A stretch of 64,000 nt of DNA from Candidatus Gastranaerophilales bacterium (GTDB lineage Bacteria > Cyanobacteriota > Vampirovibrionia > Gastranaerophilales > CAJFVJ01): NCBI GenBank assembly GCA_944323485.1, contig CALUSR010000003.1, positions 201,466 through 265,465 on the forward strand, read 5' to 3'. The notes below the pieces were generated by a model. That model did no database searches. It worked only from the letters and a program-made list of their open reading frames with translations, and was not told the origin of the DNA. Shown piece by piece: positions 8,049-16,488 of the stretch. Both the position numbers and the translations under genes were made by a program. Positions within the stretch are counted from its first letter, which is position 1, and every line of letters starts with the position of its first letter.

Positions 8049-8462
8049 ATGAAAAACTGTTGTCATGGACATGGCAATCACAACTGCCACAACAATCATG
8101 GAAGCTATGGAAGAGGACACGGTAGAAGACGCGAACTATTTGAACAAAAATACGAAGAATATTTGAGAAGCACTTCCATCCCTGAATTTGAAAATGACGA
8201 AGATTACGAAAACTGGCTTACGAAAACAGAAGAAGGGCAAAGGCATTTTCTTCATATTCAAAAAATTAAAGAAGAAGTGAACAGAGAAATTCCATGGGGC
8301 GGACGAAGAATGAACGCCGGACGAAAAAGCTGCGGAAATAAAATTCCTTTCAACCGCCGCATCGATGAATCAAAACTCGAAATTCTCAAAGATTATGCAC
8401 AAAAACACAACATAACAGAAACCGAAGCACTTGAAATTGCCATCGAAAAACTGCTCGACTAA
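8049..8462 (+). CDS. hypothetical protein with a His/Cys-rich N-terminus and a C-terminal ribbon-helix-helix-like region
   Basis: The N-terminus MKNCCHGHGNHNCHNNHGSYGRGHG is metal-binding-like. The C-terminus IPFNRRIDESKLEILKDYAQKHNITETEALEIAIEKLL resembles a CopG/NikR-type RHH. Confidence 0.5.
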   Translation: MKNCCHGHGNHNCHNNHGSYGRGHGRRRELFEQKYEEYLRSTSIPEFENDEDYENWLTKTEEGQRHFLHIQKIKEEVNREIPWGGRRMNAGRKSCGNKIPFNRRIDESKLEILKDYAQKHNITETEALEIAIEKLLD

Positions 8463-9041: not shown

Positions 9042-10589
9042 TCAATATAATATGGCGGGTGTCGCCAAGCGGTTAAGGCCTCGGATTGTGGTTCCGATAT
9101 TCGTGGGTTCGAATCCCATCATCCGCCCCATATTAAACTTATTATCAGTCAATCGGTCTAAGAACTCGAATATGACTGATTTTTTATGTGTTCGAAAATT
9201 ACTCAAATCAAAACTTGCTCCCTCTGGATAAATCAGTTTTTGTAAACGCTGTCTAAATTCAAGCCCACCACTTTCCCATAGGCTTTTAATATTATTCAGA
9301 GCAAAGCAACAACTGTCTAAGAATTGATTAATACTACTTTCAGGGATTTCCATGCCTGCTAATATCGTCTTTTTATCCAAAATAGCCTGCTCTATATCAT
9401 CATTAACAAGCTTATAATCTCTTTCGGACAGTTTATCATCTATGTACTTTTTAGTCAGCCTTAATTTGCTTTCATTAAGTTCTTTGAGTTCATTTTCAAG
9501 TTGCTTTTTCAGGTTGGTCTGCTCTTTTATTTCTTCATTGTAAACATCTTCCAGTATGCTTCTAAACAAGGTTAAAAGCTCTTTTTTAGGTTTAATCACT
9601 TCAAGATGTTTTTTAAACTCCTCTTCTAATCTATCCTTTCTAATCCTGAACTTTAGCATACAGTCTTTATTGTGACAGTGATAATATGCATATTTCTGAT
9701 TTCTGCCTTTACTGTAACTTGCTGTTAAAGGTTTGTTGCAATAAGGACACTTAATATACTGTCTTAAAGGGAATTCTTCTCTATTTCGTTTGTAGCCGGT
9801 AATTAATGGCTTTTTACCGTCTAATATTGCCTGAACTTTATAAAAAGTATCTTCATCGATAAGCGGTTCGAAAATTCCCCTGACTGGTTCATCAAGCCAG
9901 CTATAAGTAAGCATTCCGATATAAACTTTATTTCTTAAAATCCTGCCTACTTTGTTTTTATTGAGGTCTTTCATGCCTGCTTGTCTTAACTTTTCCATAA
10001 CTTCTATTTGAGAATATAAACCAGTAGCAAATAATTCAAACGCCATTTTGATATACTTTGCATTTTCAGGACAAGGGATTAAAGATTTTTCTTTATCATT
10101 TTTATATCCGACAGGGGCTAAATTTACCCATCTGCCTTTATTAACAGCCCCTCTCATTCCTAGTTTAGTTCTTTCACATATTTTTCGCCATTCATAACGG
10201 CTTGTTCCTTGTGTTATCCATCTTAAAAACTCTGCTTCGGGTGTATCTTCATTATTTTCTGTTACAGATAAGGGCTTAATATTGGTTCGTTCAAAAAACT
10301 GTCCTAAGACATGATAGTCTGATTGCTCACCTCTTGATAGTCTGTCCCATTTCCAAAATATCAAAACATTAATATCTTTTTTATGTTCGGCACAAAACTC
10401 AAACATTCTTTTTAATTCTGTACGGATTAAGTCTTTAGCACTTTCGCCTTTTTCTCTAAAAATCTTAACAACTTCATAACCGTTCTTTACGGCAAATTCC
10501 ATACATTCCTGTTCTTGTTGACCTAAACTATAACCATGTTTAGCTTGTTCTTCCGTTGATACTCGACAGTATATTACAGCTTTTTGCAT
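9042..10589 (-). CDS. large serine recombinase (integrase)
   Basis: Resolvase catalytic N-domain (AVIYCRVSTEEQ), a recombinase domain, a zinc ribbon (CPYCNKPLTASYSKGRNQKYAYYHCHNKDC) and a coiled coil. The last ~29 codons run antisense through the tRNA-His gene. Confidence 0.85.
   Translation of the reverse strand: MQKAVIYCRVSTEEQAKHGYSLGQQEQECMEFAVKNGYEVVKIFREKGESAKDLIRTELKRMFEFCAEHKKDINVLIFWKWDRLSRGEQSDYHVLGQFFERTNIKPLSVTENNEDTPEAEFLRWITQGTSRYEWRKICERTKLGMRGAVNKGRWVNLAPVGYKNDKEKSLIPCPENAKYIKMAFELFATGLYSQIEVMEKLRQAGMKDLNKNKVGRILRNKVYIGMLTYSWLDEPVRGIFEPLIDEDTFYKVQAILDGKKPLITGYKRNREEFPLRQYIKCPYCNKPLTASYSKGRNQKYAYYHCHNKDCMLKFRIRKDRLEEEFKKHLEVIKPKKELLTLFRSILEDVYNEEIKEQTNLKKQLENELKELNESKLRLTKKYIDDKLSERDYKLVNDDIEQAILDKKTILAGMEIPESSINQFLDSCCFALNNIKSLWESGGLEFRQRLQKLIYPEGASFDLSNFRTHKKSVIFEFLDRLTDNKFNMGRMMGFEPTNIGTTIRGLNRLATPAILY
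9054..9130 (+). tRNA. tRNA-His (anticodon GTG)
   Basis: Folded by hand into a cloverleaf: acceptor GCGGGTG/CATCCGC, anticodon arm TCGGA-TTGTGGT-TCCGA, T arm GTGGG-TTCGAAT-CCCAT. An extra G-1 pairs with discriminator C73, the His identity hallmark. CCA is encoded. Confidence 0.9.
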
Positions 10590-10726
10590 AATATTACCCC
10601 CTTGTAATTTTTGACTAAAACCTTAGCCATTTGATACAGCAACTCTTGAATTTCTTTGATTTCTTGGTCTGTCATTTCTTCCTTTGTTTTCCCTAAAATT
10701 TTTCGGCAAGCTTCGATACTAAGCAT
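10574..10726 (-). CDS. small hypothetical ORF (50 aa) upstream of and overlapping the recombinase start
   Basis: Hand translation gives MLSIEACRKILGKTKEEMTDQEIKEIQELLYQMAKVLVKNYKGVILCKKL, ending 16 nt inside the recombinase gene. No recognisable domain. Confidence 0.35.
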   Translation of the reverse strand: MLSIEACRKILGKTKEEMTDQEIKEIQELLYQMAKVLVKNYKGVILCKKL

Positions 10727-10826
10727 TTTTCAATCCTTATTGCTTTGTATTGAAGCTCAACTTGCCTCATTGCCACTTCAAATATTTAGTTATAACTTTA
10801 AATAAGCTCTATGCTTCCATAGCCAC

Positions 10827-11636
10827 TTACTTAATTTTGATAGTTTCTTCTTTTGTTAAAAATACAGAATTGCCATTTGTGAATTTTACTTCTATATTTT
10901 CATATTCTGAATTTTTTACTAATTCAACAAGTTCTTCCCTTGTTAGCTTATTGTCTTTGCATTTGGGTTTTATGATGTAATCAGCTTTTTTCTTTCTAAT
11001 TAAAATCTCAATATAATTTTCGTTTTCAATGGTATCAAGAATAAGAACACGTCTTAAAGCTGCTGGTATGTCGCAAAATGGATTGACTTTATTATTTTTA
11101 TCTAATTCTAATTCCTTTTTAAAATATTTAAGCATTCCTTCTTTGTAATACTGTCCGATAGGTATTATTAAAAGACTTTCACTTAGAAGATTTTCTTGTT
11201 TAAAATCAGATGATACCTCTCTATGAAAATTAACAAGTGAATTGTTCCCCTTGCCTATTCCATAACCGCCCCTTTGACTTACAGCCAAATAATAGTAATC
11301 TTGTTCATCGCTATGAAATATGCCTGTAAGCAAAGCTGGTTTTATATTAGTAACCTGTTGCAAAATGAAATTAATAACTTCATCAGAATATAAGTTTTTC
11401 TTCATATCTCGAATGATTTTAAGACAAGTAATGTCAAAAACAGAGAATTTTCGCCATCCATTTGTATTATCCCTTTTGCAGCTTTTTAAAAATCCTCTTT
11501 TATCCCAATCATTTAATTGACGATATGAGACTTCTTCTAAATCTTTAATTGTAAAAACTTGCCTTTCATCTGTTTTAGACTGGTTGTCTAATTGCTCTGC
11601 AACTCTTAATAATCCCTTTTTTTCTGCTGCTTCCAT
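10827..11636 (-). CDS. hypothetical protein with an N-terminal MerR-like HTH
   Basis: FTIKDLEEVSYRQLNDWDKRGFL resembles the MerR-type HTH-wing. The rest is unrecognised. Confidence 0.5.
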   Translation of the reverse strand: MEAAEKKGLLRVAEQLDNQSKTDERQVFTIKDLEEVSYRQLNDWDKRGFLKSCKRDNTNGWRKFSVFDITCLKIIRDMKKNLYSDEVINFILQQVTNIKPALLTGIFHSDEQDYYYLAVSQRGGYGIGKGNNSLVNFHREVSSDFKQENLLSESLLIIPIGQYYKEGMLKYFKKELELDKNNKVNPFCDIPAALRRVLILDTIENENYIEILIRKKKADYIIKPKCKDNKLTREELVELVKNSEYENIEVKFTNGNSVFLTKEETIKIK

Positions 11637-11725
11637 GTTTAATTCCCCATGTTAAATTACACATCTATGTATATTATAACATAATAAATTATACATGCAA
11701 GTATAAATATCTTTCTAAATTGTTT

Positions 11726-12718
11726 TTATAGATTTGTATTAGAAAACATTATTACAGTGTTAAGTCCAGTATTTGAAGTTAATGTGAGAGTCCCATATAA
11801 ACATATTGGTATTTCTCTATTATTTTTAAACCTTCTATCAGGACCGCCAGATTTATTTATATAACGCCAAGTTTTTCCTATAACATTAGCATCACTTGGT
11901 ATGGTCTCTTCTTCTACAAATTGTGTGGTAGAGGCGTTTGTTTGAATATCACAGTAATCAATTGCTATGATTTTACAATCTTGAATAACAAATAATTTAT
12001 CAGGTAAAAATATTATAGTTTCTTGTGGGGTGATAAAAGATACGGCACTTGTTTCAAATTTAAAAGGAAACACAGATTTTCTACTTGTAGTACAATTAAT
12101 CCTCTTTATTGTGCTAGTTGCCCCTGCTGAATATTTGGTATCTATAACCCTATTTGAACTTAAAATACGCCAAGTTTTTGCACTTTGGGCTACTTTTACC
12201 ATTGGTTGCATTTTATTTTCAATAACAGCCCGCAAATCATCATCTATGTTATATTCTAAATCTATTGTTCCAAAAATTCTAACGTATCCAAATAGACATA
12301 TAAAAAGGAATAAAGGGATAAGAAAAAAATGATTAAATAACATCAATATAAAAGATATTATCATACCAATAGTGGCTATTTGGTTAATTTTTAAACTTTT
12401 CCTAGCTAATGATAATATTTCGTCGCAACTTTCACTATTGCTCAAATTTGACATCTCATTTATGAATTCTTTTTCACCATAACAATTATTGTTATTTTGT
12501 ATGTGTGTATATTCTTTTTCGTTTTCTTTATTATTGCTAGTTTCTTCAACATATGATAATCCAGTACCTGGAATAGAAGCTGTTTTTCTAATTGTCCCTT
12601 TTGCAGTTTTCGTAATTCTATAACCTTTTACACCCCAACTATAGCCTATTCCAGATTTACTAAGATTTATTCTGAAACCACCTCCAATATTAATACTTTT
12701 TCTATATCTAAATCCCAT
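11726..12718 (-). CDS. DUF4236-like membrane protein
   Basis: The N-terminus MGFRYRKSINIGGGFRINLSKSGIGYSWGVKGYRITKTAKG matches my memory of the DUF4236 signature. A central TM hairpin is present. Confidence 0.55.
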   Translation of the reverse strand: MGFRYRKSINIGGGFRINLSKSGIGYSWGVKGYRITKTAKGTIRKTASIPGTGLSYVEETSNNKENEKEYTHIQNNNNCYGEKEFINEMSNLSNSESCDEILSLARKSLKINQIATIGMIISFILMLFNHFFLIPLFLFICLFGYVRIFGTIDLEYNIDDDLRAVIENKMQPMVKVAQSAKTWRILSSNRVIDTKYSAGATSTIKRINCTTSRKSVFPFKFETSAVSFITPQETIIFLPDKLFVIQDCKIIAIDYCDIQTNASTTQFVEEETIPSDANVIGKTWRYINKSGGPDRRFKNNREIPICLYGTLTLTSNTGLNTVIMFSNTNL

Positions 12719-12795
12719 TTGTAACTCCTTGCTTAAATAAATTTAGCACAAAAATAGCTTAAATTTATATTTTTATAGATACAAAAAAATGGTAG

Positions 12796-13212
12796 CTATA
12801 TTTGTTTTAATATATTATTTATAATTCTTTTGGTTTCCTGCTTGTTGATTGGTGATAATTCACAGACCTGTTGAAATGGAATTTGCCCTAAAGTATCACG
12901 TATAAATGTTAAATACCTTACTAATTCACTAAGAGTTGTTTTTTCTGCATAGGCTTTGTATGTAGTGAATAAAATAATGCTTTCAAGATAATTTAATTTT
13001 GTAGTGTTTTTTATACCTTGTTCCTTTAAAATGACTATTAAATCATCGCTTGGTTTACTTTGTAGTATTTGAGTTAAAACCTTATTGAAATTTGCCTTTT
13101 CTTTTCTTGCTACCCCTGATTTAATCCCTGCTTTTCTTGCAAGTTCCGCTCTTTGTTTCGGAGTTCTTTCGGAGTTCGATTTTAGATTTTTTAAACTTTT
13201 GTTATTTATCAT
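12796..13212 (-). CDS. hypothetical protein (element cargo)
   Basis: ORF with a basic N-terminus (RTPKQRAELARKAGIKSGVARKEK). An inverted repeat ATTACGCA-N11-TGCGTAAT lies just upstream at about 13233..13260. Confidence 0.45.
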   Translation of the reverse strand: MINNKSLKNLKSNSERTPKQRAELARKAGIKSGVARKEKANFNKVLTQILQSKPSDDLIVILKEQGIKNTTKLNYLESIILFTTYKAYAEKTTLSELVRYLTFIRDTLGQIPFQQVCELSPINKQETKRIINNILKQI

Positions 13213-13292
13213 CAGTAAATACTCATAAAACAGGATTACGCACTATTTATACATGCGTAATTTATGAAACTCTTTTACCTCATTTATTAACT

Positions 13293-13323
13293 GGTTCGAA
13301 TTAAAATCTAATACCCGCCCCAT
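13293..13323 (+). repeat. degenerate tRNA-His 3'-half mimic and right-hand att core
   Basis: GGTTCGAAT (identical to the tRNA T-loop 9106..9114), then 13 nt, then CCGCCCCAT (identical to 9123..9131). Confidence 0.55.
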
Positions 13324-13330
13324 TTATTAA

Positions 13331-13352
13331 AGCTCCCTAAAGGGAGTTTTTT
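13331..13352 (+). terminator. rho-independent terminator (likely the original tRNA-His terminator)
   Basis: agCTCCC-taaa-GGGAG followed by TTTTTT. Confidence 0.7.
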
Positions 13353-14089: not shown

Positions 14090-14203
14090 ATGGAAAAATT
14101 TTATGACAAATTTAACAATCTGTTCAGTATTTCAAAGACTCTGAGATTTGAACTTAAACCTGCTTTGAGGGAGTTTCCTGCGTTTGGTTTAATACCTATT
14201 TAA
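14090..14203 (+). pseudogene. cas12a: cas12a (cpf1) N-terminal remnant: 24 conserved codons, then unrelated sequence
   Basis: MEKFYDKFNNLFSISKTLRFELKP matches the hallmark Cas12a N-terminus (compare ..YSLSKTLRFELIPQGKT in FnCas12a). Similarity ends after KP and the ORF stops at 37 aa. Confidence 0.65.
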
Positions 14204-14222
14204 AATTTCTACTATTGTAGAT
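14187..14222 (+). CRISPR. solitary type V-A (Cas12a) CRISPR repeat
   Basis: GTTTAATACCTATTTAAAATTTCTACTATTGTAGAT. The 3' 19 nt, AATTTCTACT-ATT-GTAGAT, is the conserved Cas12a crRNA handle with the TCTAC/GTAGA stem. I found no second copy in the window by eye. Confidence 0.7.
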
Positions 14223-14636
14223 ATTTCTGAATTTATCATATTTGCAAAATATTCTATGCCAGATTTCCGCATTGGAATCGGGCGGAATATCAGTCCAGGA
14301 AGAAGTATAAGGCAGAGCAACGAGAGGATATTTTTTTAGATCATAAAAGTTCGATGACAAAACCCTAAATTGTCTTTTTTTACAATTAATCTCATATTTT
14401 GATAGCATATACCATACTTTTTTCCCGTCTATGTCCTCTAATGTTCCATCATTTAGGATTTTGAGCCAAAATATTGCCCCGCTGTCAATATACTTGATAC
14501 TTGATTTGTCGATATATGTTTTATGTCCGAATTCTTCCCAGGTTGCCGCCATTGCAAGCGGTGTAAAAATTGCAAACATGAGTAAAAACAGCAATATTTT
14601 TTTCATAGAAAAACCTTTATTGATATTTATTGTCAT
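14196..14636 (-). CDS. hypothetical secreted protein
   Basis: Signal peptide MKKILLFLLMFAIFTPLAMA. The last 8 codons overlap the Cas12a-type repeat. Confidence 0.55.
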   Translation of the reverse strand: MTININKGFSMKKILLFLLMFAIFTPLAMAATWEEFGHKTYIDKSSIKYIDSGAIFWLKILNDGTLEDIDGKKVWYMLSKYEINCKKRQFRVLSSNFYDLKKYPLVALPYTSSWTDIPPDSNAEIWHRIFCKYDKFRNIYNSRNFK

Positions 14637-15238
14637 TTCTCTCTTCTCGCTAAACGAACTAAATATAGAACTGGCGTATCAAATGCGTTTATTTCTTTCT
14701 GTTTTATTTGTGTTGTCAGAAGATATCCGTCGGTTAGTTTCTTATAAGCTGTTCTGTTCCCGACATCAAATGTTGAATCTTTTTTCCCTTTTGGCAGCTG
14801 CCGGGATGTAACTTCTTTAGTGTTAGTGTTTAAAGTTAATTCTGTAATAATATAATCGGTTTCTCTTTGAGCTGTTATTATTCCGTTTTTTATGCTTGTT
14901 ATGTCATATAAATAATGATCTATAAACCAAACAGCAAATTCTTCTACATAAGTTTCTTCGCAATAACCTGATTTAATAAAACATCTTATGTTTGACAGTC
15001 TGGGGTATCTGTATTGTCCGCCTTCAGTGTCGTGTATATCCCAGCTGCCTTTTGTTTCAATATATTCGTTATCAAAATAAAAATGAAAAGAATCAAGAAG
15101 CGGTGCCGCTTTTTTAAGATAATTGTTTTCTCTAACCATTTCATAGAAAAACAGACAAACAACAAAAACAATTGAGATAGTTGTTATTATCAATTTTTTT
15201 ATTAGTTTTTTTGAGAAAAATTCTTTAATCTTGTTCAT
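14633..15238 (-). CDS. hypothetical membrane-anchored protein
   Basis: The preferred start MNKIKEFFSKK at 15238 lies just after the stop of the upstream repressor gene. One N-terminal TM helix. It overlaps the downstream ORF by 4 nt. Confidence 0.5.
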   Translation of the reverse strand: MNKIKEFFSKKLIKKLIITTISIVFVVCLFFYEMVRENNYLKKAAPLLDSFHFYFDNEYIETKGSWDIHDTEGGQYRYPRLSNIRCFIKSGYCEETYVEEFAVWFIDHYLYDITSIKNGIITAQRETDYIITELTLNTNTKEVTSRQLPKGKKDSTFDVGNRTAYKKLTDGYLLTTQIKQKEINAFDTPVLYLVRLARREK

Positions 15239-15239
15239 T

Positions 15240-16181
15240 TTACCTCGACACTCTTCCCCACCAGCGCACCTCGCCGATGATTTCAAAATCGTAGTTGATT
15301 TCTTTTGACAGATCAACATCAAAACTTTTATACTTCCGGTTGTCAGATATCACAACAACGGTTGAGGGAGGCACAAACTGAAGCCTCTTTGCATAAAGTT
15401 CCCCGTTGATTCTCACGCAATAGATTTTCCCGTCGTGGATTTCTGTTTTTGAGCGGTCAATCAAAAGACTATCACCGCCTTCTATTGTCGGCGACATACT
15501 GTCACCTGATGCAAAAATCATTTCGGTCTTTTTGATATTCAAGTTCAAATCTTCGGCAAGCTGGCGGCTTACCGGATATATTCCGGTCCGGTTTTGTTCA
15601 AAAACCGTCACACCATAACCCATAGAAGCTTTGACATCTCCGAGTACGGGAATTTCAAAACATTCCGGGCTTGAAGGATTTGAAGAAGAGAACATTTCTC
15701 CCTCGCCTGTTAGGAGCCAGTGAGCATTTATCCCAAATTGTGTAATAATGAATTCTAATAATTCAAGAGGCGGTTTTCTTTCACCACGTTCATATTTTAC
15801 ATAAGTAGTTTGTAAAATATTTAGCTGGCGTGCAAATGCGCTGGCATTGGGATTTATTTGTTCTCTTATTTTTTTTAATCTTTCTGAAATTAAATCATTC
15901 ATTTTTTTATTCCAAAATGTGTTGACATCAGGGCTATCTGCCACAGGCTGAACAGACGAAGAAAACATTTCGCCTTCACCTGTTAGGAGCCAGTTCATAT
16001 TTACTCCGTATTTGTAAACTAATTGTTCCAGCAATTCAAGAGGCGGTTTTCTCTCCCCACGTTCATAACTCTGATATGTCCTATATTGTATCCCTAATTT
16101 TTCTGCAAAATCAGACACTTTAAACCCGAGATATTTCCTTAATATTATTAAATTTTGAGGTAATTGTAACATATTGCACAT
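15240..16181 (-). CDS. CI/LexA-like repressor: two XRE-type HTH domains plus an S24 peptidase domain
   Basis: Tandem HTH modules both end ..ERGERKPPLELLE...NWLLTGEGEMFSSS. The C-terminal region GDSMSPTIEGGDSLLID...YAKRL carries the Ser/Lys dyad. The ATG at 16181 is preferred over the TTG at 16196. Confidence 0.8.
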   Translation of the reverse strand: MCNMLQLPQNLIILRKYLGFKVSDFAEKLGIQYRTYQSYERGERKPPLELLEQLVYKYGVNMNWLLTGEGEMFSSSVQPVADSPDVNTFWNKKMNDLISERLKKIREQINPNASAFARQLNILQTTYVKYERGERKPPLELLEFIITQFGINAHWLLTGEGEMFSSSNPSSPECFEIPVLGDVKASMGYGVTVFEQNRTGIYPVSRQLAEDLNLNIKKTEMIFASGDSMSPTIEGGDSLLIDRSKTEIHDGKIYCVRINGELYAKRLQFVPPSTVVVISDNRKYKSFDVDLSKEINYDFEIIGEVRWWGRVSR

Positions 16182-16189
16182 AAAATTCC

Positions 16190-16218
16190 TTGACAATTAT
16201 GAACAAATAGTGTATAGT
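16190..16218 (+). promoter_or_regulatory. near-consensus sigma70-type promoter for the divergent small gene
   Basis: TTGACA, a 17-nt spacer, then TATAGT. It overlaps the 5' end of the repressor gene region. Confidence 0.5.
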
Positions 16219-16254
16219 AATAATACAGATTACACAAGTTAGTGAGAATAACTT

Positions 16255-16413
16255 ATGAACGTAACACTACATATTAGATTAAAAACGAAAGAGCTGGCTG
16301 AGAAAGTAAAGCAGATGAGAGAACAGGGATATACGATTCCCGTTCTTGTGAGAAACTTTCTGTCAGATTTTCCGTTAGAGAAGAAAAAGGAGAAGAGCTC
16401 GCTCGATTGCTAA
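16255..16413 (+). CDS. small RHH-like (Cro/Arc-like) protein, about 52 aa, coordinates approximate
   Basis: MNVTLHIRLKTKELAEKVKQMREQGYTIPVLVRNFL has a strand-helix-helix pattern. The gene is divergent from the CI-like repressor and below the ORF-track cutoff. Confidence 0.4.
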   Translation: MNVTLHIRLKTKELAEKVKQMREQGYTIPVLVRNFLSDFPLEKKKEKSSLDC

Positions 16414-16488
16414 TCTTCCCCGTAATTAAATCTCATAAAAAACATTTTTACACAAAAAATCACAATGCGCAAGACAACAAAAGCAATA

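Follow-up and report, generated by a model that had tools for sequence, protein, structure and literature searches.

Introduction

Serine integrases are major tools of genome engineering, and their natural sites usually lie in protein-coding or intergenic DNA. The large serine integrases of phages such as A118/LI, Bxb1 and phiC31 combine a Resolvase domain, a Recombinase domain and a zinc ribbon with an inserted coiled coil, and they act on short att sites that have a small core in common and contain a 9-bp motif for the zinc-ribbon domain (ZD) that is shifted by 5 bp between attP and attB. Here we describe an element of 4,192 bp (one core copy counted) in a 64,000-nucleotide stretch of DNA from a Candidatus Gastranaerophilales bacterium (contig CALUSR010000003.1, positions 201,466 to 265,465; hereafter the window), which resembles the phage systems in all of these respects. 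What is unusual here, and unlike those phages, is that the element targets a tRNA gene at its 3′ end, that the T-loop appears to serve as the docking motif, and that attP lies across the last codons of the integrase's own gene, making the C-terminus dependent on the integration state. We consider it likely that the element was inserted into the 3′ end of tRNA-His(GTG) by its large serine recombinase (LSR), that attP spans the end of the integrase gene, and that a C-terminal helix is encoded only when this gene is joined to the P arm.

Genomic islands and prophages with tyrosine integrases resemble this element in that they insert in and restore the 3′ end of a tRNA gene, have the integrase gene adjoining the tRNA, and pile up at the site as tandem arrays and remnants. 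Their recombinase is unrelated, however, and the block of identity here is only 9 bp instead of a long copy of the tRNA 3′ end; the T-loop-like sequence at the far end of the present element would be a displaced binding motif and not a tRNA duplicate. In the SSV-type archaeal integrases, which are tyrosine recombinases, attP lies inside the integrase open reading frame (ORF), the target is a tRNA gene and integration alters the integrase gene. The RAP44-like phages of Riemerella likewise have attP inside the integrase gene at a tRNA, again with a tyrosine recombinase (PMC12169736). In these two groups the gene is split near its 5′ end or into two large parts, whereas here only the last ~25 residues are exchanged. 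In mycobacteriophage BPs, attP lies in the coding sequence (CDS) of the repressor, whose integrated and free forms have C-termini with different properties through loss of an ssrA-like degron (PMC4557955); there the repressor is affected and the integrase is of the tyrosine type, whereas here the serine integrase itself is affected. The tycheposons of Prochlorococcus are small cargo elements in tRNA genes, 27 of 937 of them with a large serine recombinase according to the passages of a preprint that deal with them, and these passages describe no ORF overlapping attP (10.1101/2020.12.28.424599). Among open-access papers and preprints we found no description of an attP site lying across the integrase's own C-terminus for serine integrases.

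Boundaries of the element and its movement between genomes

The element was first proposed in a first-pass annotation made from the sequence of the window. The tRNA-His(GTG) gene, placed there at 9054, was confirmed by ARAGORN at 9055..9130 (+), one nucleotide further on; it is intact, has CCA encoded and is the sole tRNA of the 64-kb window. The 9-bp core CCGCCCCAT occurs at 9123..9131 (+), where it comprises tRNA nucleotides 69-76 plus one, and again at 13315..13323 (+), and the T-loop motif GGTTCGAAT occurs at 9106..9114 and 13293..13301 (both +). The element occupies the last 8 nt of the tRNA gene, which forms the B arm of attL. Beyond the right-hand core lies the native tRNA terminator at 13333..13352, a CTCCC-TAAA-GGGAG hairpin followed by T6 with a fold of −11.5 kcal/mol. 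These features, together with the same-strand ORFs between the two cores, were all found where they had been predicted. The core 9-mer has three copies in the window against 0.10 expected, and none of 100 shuffles reached three; this and the precision of the empty sites described below speak against the possibility, allowed for in the annotation, that the right-hand repeat is a chance similarity. The third exact copy, at 8294..8302 (−), falls within a 137-aa ORF (8049..8462), has no T-loop motif alongside and is probably there by chance.

Empty and occupied alleles were sought among contigs encoding exactly the same SMR protein as the left flank of the window. The five element genes are present in two of these loci (L001 and L004), while in six others (L002, L003 and L005 to L008) the 205-aa gene of the right flank stands directly beside the tRNA with no element between. 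The empty sites read tRNA-His...CATCATCCGCCCCAT and then TTATTAAAGCTCCCTAAAGGGAGTTTTTT, the left flank passing directly into the right flank at the core. The predicted attB (tRNA-His...CCGCCCCAT, then TTATTAAAGCTCCCTAAAGGGAGTTTTTT) is seen in the empty alleles L002, L003, L005, L006 and L007, with one A fewer in the TTATTAAAG stretch in L003 and L006. The tRNA-His gene is identical between occupied and empty alleles, and in the latter it is adjoined directly by the B′ arm (13324..13352, +), which contains the native terminator (hairpin 13333..13346 plus T6). The right-hand boundary at the attR core is placed by the empty-site alignment as well as by the sequence repeat. Empty alleles of the same species therefore match the proposed attB and element boundaries at base level, and the 4.2 kb is absent from this site in several related genomes.

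The flank and the element have also diverged in different ways. Compared with the window, L012 has 66 mismatches in the 6.1-kb left flank and a single mismatch in the 4.2-kb element; L004 has 15 mismatches in the flank and 126 in the element; and L007 has 13 mismatches in the flank and an empty site. This incongruence indicates that the element has moved between genomes. When the recombinase-side junction was searched for, the same 28 nt turned up next to other tRNA-His alleles, three alleles in all; the core is preceded by ...CATCTT in L106 and L109 and by ...CATCAC in L108, and the 5′ acceptor strand is changed to match. These three loci have unrelated flanks, and the identity of their LSR genes to that of the window is no more than 72-74%. 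Since the host-specific bases reach right up to the core, the crossover falls inside the core. Altogether, this is a discrete site-specific integrative element that has spread among hosts. A transposon with a target-site duplication does not fit: in different hosts the insertion is site-specific, and no transposase is encoded.

An integrase whose C-terminus depends on integration

The five ORFs between the core repeats all lie on the minus strand; they are the LSR and ORFs of 50, 269, 330 and 138 aa. The LSR (9042..10589, −) contains Resolvase (9.2e-27), Recombinase (8.5e-12) and Zn_ribbon_recom (2.1e-8) domains in Pfam. Its catalytic-domain residues R9, S11, D82, R83 and R86 and its zinc-ribbon residues C281, C284, C305 and C310 are invariant in an alignment of 24 sequences (A2), and AlphaFold2 (AF2) predicts a long coiled coil formed by helices 336-383 and 389-412. 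Similarity to solved integrases is weak and confined to the N-terminal, Recombinase and early zinc-ribbon parts. By domains and invariant residues the LSR is the element's integrase, as had been proposed, and both its sequence and its att sites are those expected of a large serine integrase.

Within the element the LSR ORF meets no stop codon; it crosses the 9-bp core, whose minus strand encodes M-G-R. The integrated form is a protein of 515 aa ending in ...NMGRMMGFEPTNIGTTIRGLNRLATPAILY; it reads ...NKFNMGR MMGFEPTNIGTTIRGLNRLATPAILY before the stop, and the last 26 residues after M-G-R are the antisense of tRNA-His and of its promoter region. The ORF covers the whole of the tRNA on the opposite strand and stops 11 nt past the tRNA 5′ end. 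The attP junction of a circular form is predicted to read ...AATCTAATACCCGCCCCATATTAAAC...; translation across it would give ...NMGR VLDFNSNQLINEVKEFHKLRMYK and a protein of 512 aa ending in ...NMGRVLDFNSNQLINEVKEFHKLRMYK. Both tails agree exactly with those of the first-pass annotation, and the integration-dependent C-terminus that it had predicted holds at the level of sequence. The same recombinase is found in the database with many tails: a protein cluster at 90% identity contains length variants of 492 to 539 aa, the tail being set by the junction partner.

The segment that encodes VLDFNSNQLINEVKEFHKLRMYK lies at 13243..13314 (−) and is in the integrase frame only across an attP-type junction. 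Its stop codon falls within a 7-bp inverted repeat (TTACGCA...TGCGTAA, 13213..13260, −), 30 nt upstream of the start of the 138-aa gene, so that in a circle the five genes and the tail would form an unbroken ring of co-oriented ORFs.

A conserved helix across attP-type junctions

Translation across reconstructed circular junctions places the tail in frame in eight of eight elements, and most of these tails share the motif N-W-N-x-I-V-x-E-I-x-x-F-Y-E-L-R, as in those of the window (NSNQLINEVKEFHKLR), L018 (NWNTIVNEIYKFYELR), L027 (DLNQIIVTLQQFYELR), L039 (NWNQIVGWLQGVYLLR), L050 (NWNQITEWLQEVKSFR) and L077 (KWNSLFENIKKIVDLR). A hidden Markov model (HMM) of the tail, which matches the window segment with i-E = 2.4e-9, found more copies at the far ends of elements; in L080, L085, L086 and L102 the tail is contiguous with the LSR ORF. 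L080 is a tandem array, in which the internal integrase gets its tail from the P arm of its neighbour. The same kind of tail was recognised by eye in L066 and in protein P0045. Its conserved hydrophobic residues have a heptad-like spacing. Among 15 tails, substitutions at the three codon positions are flat over the four codons of the DNA motif (151/159/156); over the next 13 codons they number 842/542/965, and 45/16/53 among close relatives. Beyond the DNA motif, this pattern is a protein-coding signature. At attP-type junctions the tail is a conserved amphipathic helix on which protein-coding selection acts. For this reason we take the form encoded across attP-type junctions to be the native protein, the integrated tail being, as judged from its sequence, only tRNA antisense. 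With attP across the end of the integrase gene, the full-length protein with its C-terminal helix would be made only in a circle or a tandem array. In the AF2 model of the excised form, the chain is confident up to about residue 480, residues 484-494 form a low-confidence linker and residues 495-511 form a helix. The idea that the tail is a degron was dropped: some tails end in -DIA, -NIA or -NVA and others do not, which leaves no consistent degron-like ending.

tRNA-antisense endings are widespread in the family

The closest LSR homologues (98-48% identity) all run antisense through tRNA-His and then diverge. In the wider family (~40-46% identity, mostly 497-499 aa), endings such as ...MVPPSEFESLSTP and ...GFEPLSHP are antisense tRNA T-arms, and on the contigs of P0019 and P0013 the LSR ORF stops ~40 nt inside tRNA-Glu(TTC). 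A family scan with one genome per species gave 80 loci from Gastranaerophilales/Melainabacteria, Acidobacteriota, Myxococcota, Verrucomicrobiota, Planctomycetota, Patescibacteria, Bacteroidota, Actinomycetota and Elusimicrobia, the nearest LSR loci coming from Gastranaerophilales. The end of the LSR ORF overlaps a called minus-strand tRNA in antisense at 49 of the 80 loci, and tRNA-antisense tails are present at 12 more, on truncated contigs or in ORFs that read through the whole tRNA. In total, about 61 of 80 loci from at least eight phyla have such an ending, mostly in tRNA-Glu. Most of the 49 overlaps are with tRNA-Glu at an offset of −40, the stop TGA being the antisense of T35-C36-A37; the other tRNAs overlapped are His, Asn, Met, Pro, Lys, Ser, Leu and Arg. 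Because tRNA-Glu has this stop in the antisense of its anticodon loop (as at L018 9454..9529 and at other tRNA-Glu loci), the integrated tail there always has 13 residues, and since tRNA-His has none the whole gene is traversed by the LSR ORF. tRNA-antisense tails were counted in 124 of the 156 database proteins that are at least 450 aa long; in terms of annotation, ~80% of the family's database entries finish in a stretch that is nothing but antisense tRNA. An ORF that runs across its own att site is a trait of a widespread LSR clade targeting tRNA 3′ ends and is not peculiar to the window element.

Six loci from Bacteroidota (L076, L078, L084 and L091-L093) are distant members with longer C-termini, in which a helix [FY]W-x-x-V-x-x-x-L-x-x-L is contiguous with the protein; the tRNA search called none in any of the six. 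These members may have kept an ancestral, unsplit arrangement or may use a different target.

A displaced T-loop motif and repair of the tRNA gene

In the eight elements for which both ends could be paired (the window, L018, L023, L027, L039, L050, L077 and L081), the far arm has a T-loop-like 9-mer whose distance from the core exceeds that of the true T-loop by 5 nt. The window motif ends 8 nt short of the core in the tRNA and 13 nt short of it in the P arm. An unbiased spacing scan was made of 57 loci, pairing each locus's own T-loop 9-mer (at most 3 mismatches) across a gap of 0-25 nt with tRNA positions 68-76 (at most 1 mismatch). A gap of 12 nt (the native 7 plus 5) was found in 8 loci including the window, any other gap in at most two loci, and shuffled sequences gave ~0.4. 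Rutherford et al. assigned the 9-bp ZD motif of a serine integrase to half-site positions 16-24 of attP and 11-19 of attB (PMC3783163). As the 5-bp shift matches this rule, we infer that the ZD of this LSR clade reads T-loop DNA (GGTTCGAAT in the window), the copy at 9106..9114 being the putative ZD-binding motif of the B arm and that at 13293..13301 its counterpart in the P arm. If so, this would explain the use of many tRNA genes in many phyla. The right-hand end had previously been described as a degenerate mimic of the tRNA 3′ half. The T-loop copy is indeed present; it is better explained as the ZD-binding motif of the P arm, shifted outwards by 5 bp in 8 loci, and the 12-13 nt between motif and core in the P arm are unlike the tRNA, which argues against a decayed tRNA duplicate. 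For the relatives, a simple repeat search for attR first gave wrong positions in L038 and L081, and the tail HMM gave better ones.

The displaced terminator is replaced from within the element. The P′ arm at attL (9132..9197, +), which lies inside the integrase CDS, contains a hairpin (9144..9180) and a T-run (9180..9185); the whole (9144..9185) has a fold of −12 kcal/mol with z = −2.3 and is the replacement terminator of the tRNA. Relatives of the element carry an equivalent hairpin plus T6 after the tRNA. The first ~66 nt past the core are nearly invariant among elements whose LSR genes are ~72-74% identical, which indicates a constraint at the DNA level in addition to coding.

Taken together, the proposed mechanism would run as follows. 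The integrase, a member of an LSR clade targeting tRNA 3′ ends, would insert the element with crossover in the 9-bp core, its zinc-ribbon domain reading the T-loop GGTTCGAAT in attB and, in the P arm, a copy of that motif placed 5 bp more distant from the core. The element would restore the last 8 nt of the tRNA and supply a new terminator from within the integrase CDS, and integration would at the same time exchange the helix for tRNA-antisense residues. If a widespread clade does dock on the near-universal T-loop, it would find landing sites in almost any bacterium, and tRNA targeting would extend beyond the tyrosine integrases.

Several results weigh against this mechanism. The 27-mer of the attP junction had no match in the metagenome and viral collections searched, and a pattern for the P′ side retrieved five loci, made up of four attL junctions, one decayed array (L105) and no circle. 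A protein search with the excised-form C-terminus returned fragments only; the database cluster does hold one 512-aa protein, with a tail from a different junction and not that of the excised form. Of the recombination sites, the products attL and attR and the substrate attB were thus seen, and excision is deduced from population data only. With few contigs of this organism in the collections (the five loci), the missing circle is weak negative evidence. No clear ZD motif was seen in the P′ or B′ arms, so that each site has the motif on one arm only. The dyad symmetry of attP and attB is weak, with the best centre, CC at core positions 1-2, giving 15 of 28 matches, which is too weak to fix the crossover by symmetry. 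The tail helix has a pLDDT of ~50 and no docking site in the AF2 model, a confidence too low for any inference about docking. Finally, Pfam, PHROG, PADLOC and NCBIfam scans of the window proteins recognised no directionality factor, replication gene or transfer gene; as to the directionality factor, the window element differs in this from the phage large serine integrases.

The small size of 4.2 kb and the lack of recognisable replication, packaging and transfer genes would also fit an immobile remnant of a decayed prophage or island, with the repeat and the T-loop-like motif present by chance or as leftovers of a duplicated tRNA, and decayed arrays such as L105 do exist at this site. This explanation is nevertheless very improbable, given the precise empty sites, the significance of the repeat, the incongruent divergence of element and flank, and the occurrence of the same junction on different tRNA-His alleles. 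Moreover, the backbone genes are all intact and conserved, and a 5-bp shift that is constant across Glu and His elements is unlike a decaying duplicate.

Possible roles of the tail exchange

The exchange of tails may act as an isoform switch, may mean a damping of expression by convergent tRNA transcription, or may be a neutral by-product. Transcription of the tRNA towards the integrase gene would damp integrase expression in the integrated state, and the two isoforms would be expected to differ in activity or abundance. A tentative and rather unlikely proposal is that the exchange is a built-in directionality or activity switch for the serine integrase, in which the state of the DNA sets the isoform. 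The helix-bearing protein of the circular element would then be the integration-proficient form, its heptad-like helix possibly engaging the coiled coil or blocking a co-translated small protein, and the tRNA-tailed protein of the integrated copy would be excision-prone or silenced. Such a solution would be common to a clade of at least eight phyla, with the universal tRNA T-loop as its docking motif.

The fold of the integrase is complete by about residue 480 and continues in a flexible linker in the AF2 model, integrated tails are free in length and sequence (492 to 565 aa), and the tRNA-Glu stop codon is merely the antisense of the anticodon loop. All this would suit a neutral by-product of compaction, in which attP came to lie on the last integrase codons with no regulatory switch; the helix would aid the protein somewhat or only at integration, and the tRNA-tailed protein would work well enough. 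We regard this as possible, though on the doubtful side, because the helix is under coding selection across phyla and is kept although most copies are not in frame, and because the split arrangement is maintained in at least eight phyla. As the C-terminus is rewritten by the enzyme's own reaction and the two natural isoforms can be compared, the question of directionality is directly testable.

Backbone and cargo genes

The 50-aa ORF (10574..10726, −) overlaps the start of the integrase gene by 16 nt. It has 46% identity to a 58-aa ORF of L018 (E = 2e-13) and occupies the same position in relatives. By this position and its size, which we take to be within the range of small directionality factors, its product is a candidate directionality factor. 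The 269-aa MerR-like helix-turn-helix (HTH) protein (10827..11636, −; Pfam MerR_1, E = 3.7e-6) is 42% identical over the HTH to a 289-aa MerR_1 protein of L018 (E = 2e-13). The first-pass annotation had counted as cargo a MerR-like HTH protein, a DUF4236-like protein and two small ORFs. All of these genes are present; the MerR-like and 50-aa proteins, however, belong to a conserved backbone of the element family, shared with the tRNA-Glu elements. The true cargo is the 330-aa DUF4236 protein (11726..12718, −; Pfam DUF4236, 4.8e-22) and the 138-aa protein (12796..13212, −), which match only uncharacterised phage families (phrog_17982, 1.5e-70, and phrog_2412, 1.2e-12, respectively). HMM searches confirmed DUF4236 and assigned no function, and PADLOC, NCBIfam and PDB sequence searches returned nothing for the 50-, 269-, 330-, 138- and 205-aa proteins. 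Other elements of the family carry ThsB-TIR, Schlafen/AlbA and PDZ proteins and restriction-modification (R-M) modules as cargo.

This gene content raises the question of autonomy. The element may be a satellite or mobilisable island that needs a helper phage or conjugative element, its integrase serving only to insert and excise it, and we rate this as a distinct possibility not far below an even chance. It has no transfer or replication genes, its two cargo proteins and the 205-aa protein of the right flank match phage families, its relatives carry defence-type cargo (ThsB-TIR, Schlafen/AlbA, R-M modules), and it has spread between hosts; on the other hand, no helper was identified among the data. 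Dependence on a helper would be compatible with the integration mechanism proposed above and is not an alternative to it.

Flanking DNA and tandem arrays

The element is embedded in ordinary chromosome, with genes for an SMR transporter, glycosyltransferases and RmuC on the left and, past a variable stretch on the right, HAD, CreD and ClC genes. The nearest named RmuC, at 49% identity, comes from Gastranaerophilales, and the uncultured host is probably a gut member of that group. Its G+C content is 0.27-0.30 over most of its length, against ~0.31-0.40 in the left flank and 0.33-0.41 beyond ~15 kb. A promoter and terminator scan of the AT-rich DNA gave 28 promoter-like sites where 23 were expected, too near expectation to be informative. 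The stretch at 14196..18786, on the right of the 205-aa gene, varies greatly from strain to strain. In the window it carries an adhesin-E-like lipoprotein, a 318-aa double-HTH repressor with an S24 peptidase domain and a WYL regulator; L005 and L007 have instead a Cas12a (Cpf1) locus with Cas4, Cas1 and Cas2.

In some loci further DNA is stacked at the same site. A module of ~2.2 kb that pairs a cytosine methylase with a HaeIII-like restriction enzyme lies in tandem to the right of the element in L013 (4944..7378) and also in L016 and L103. It has no recombinase, and its two sides are bordered by CCGCCCCATTTATTAAA and CCTGCCCCATTTATTAAAG, respectively; the module may be a leftover or may have hitchhiked on the same att core. 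In some strains, as in L103 (9001..19494) and L104, a tandem array occupies tRNA-His and has the element as a middle member. The integrase of the L103 array, one of the length variants of the 90%-identity cluster, has 497 aa with the tail NMGRDMCSCYNH and reads into the neighbouring element, which encodes Vsr, a methylase, an NgoFVII-like enzyme and a small resolvase as well as another LSR, of 571 aa. A decayed array is seen in L105 (2436..3541), where tRNA-His is followed by a remnant of ~800 bp and then by only the last ~75 LSR codons; the remnant ends in a sequence of P-arm type, in which 13 nt separate AGTTCGAGC from the core that follows.

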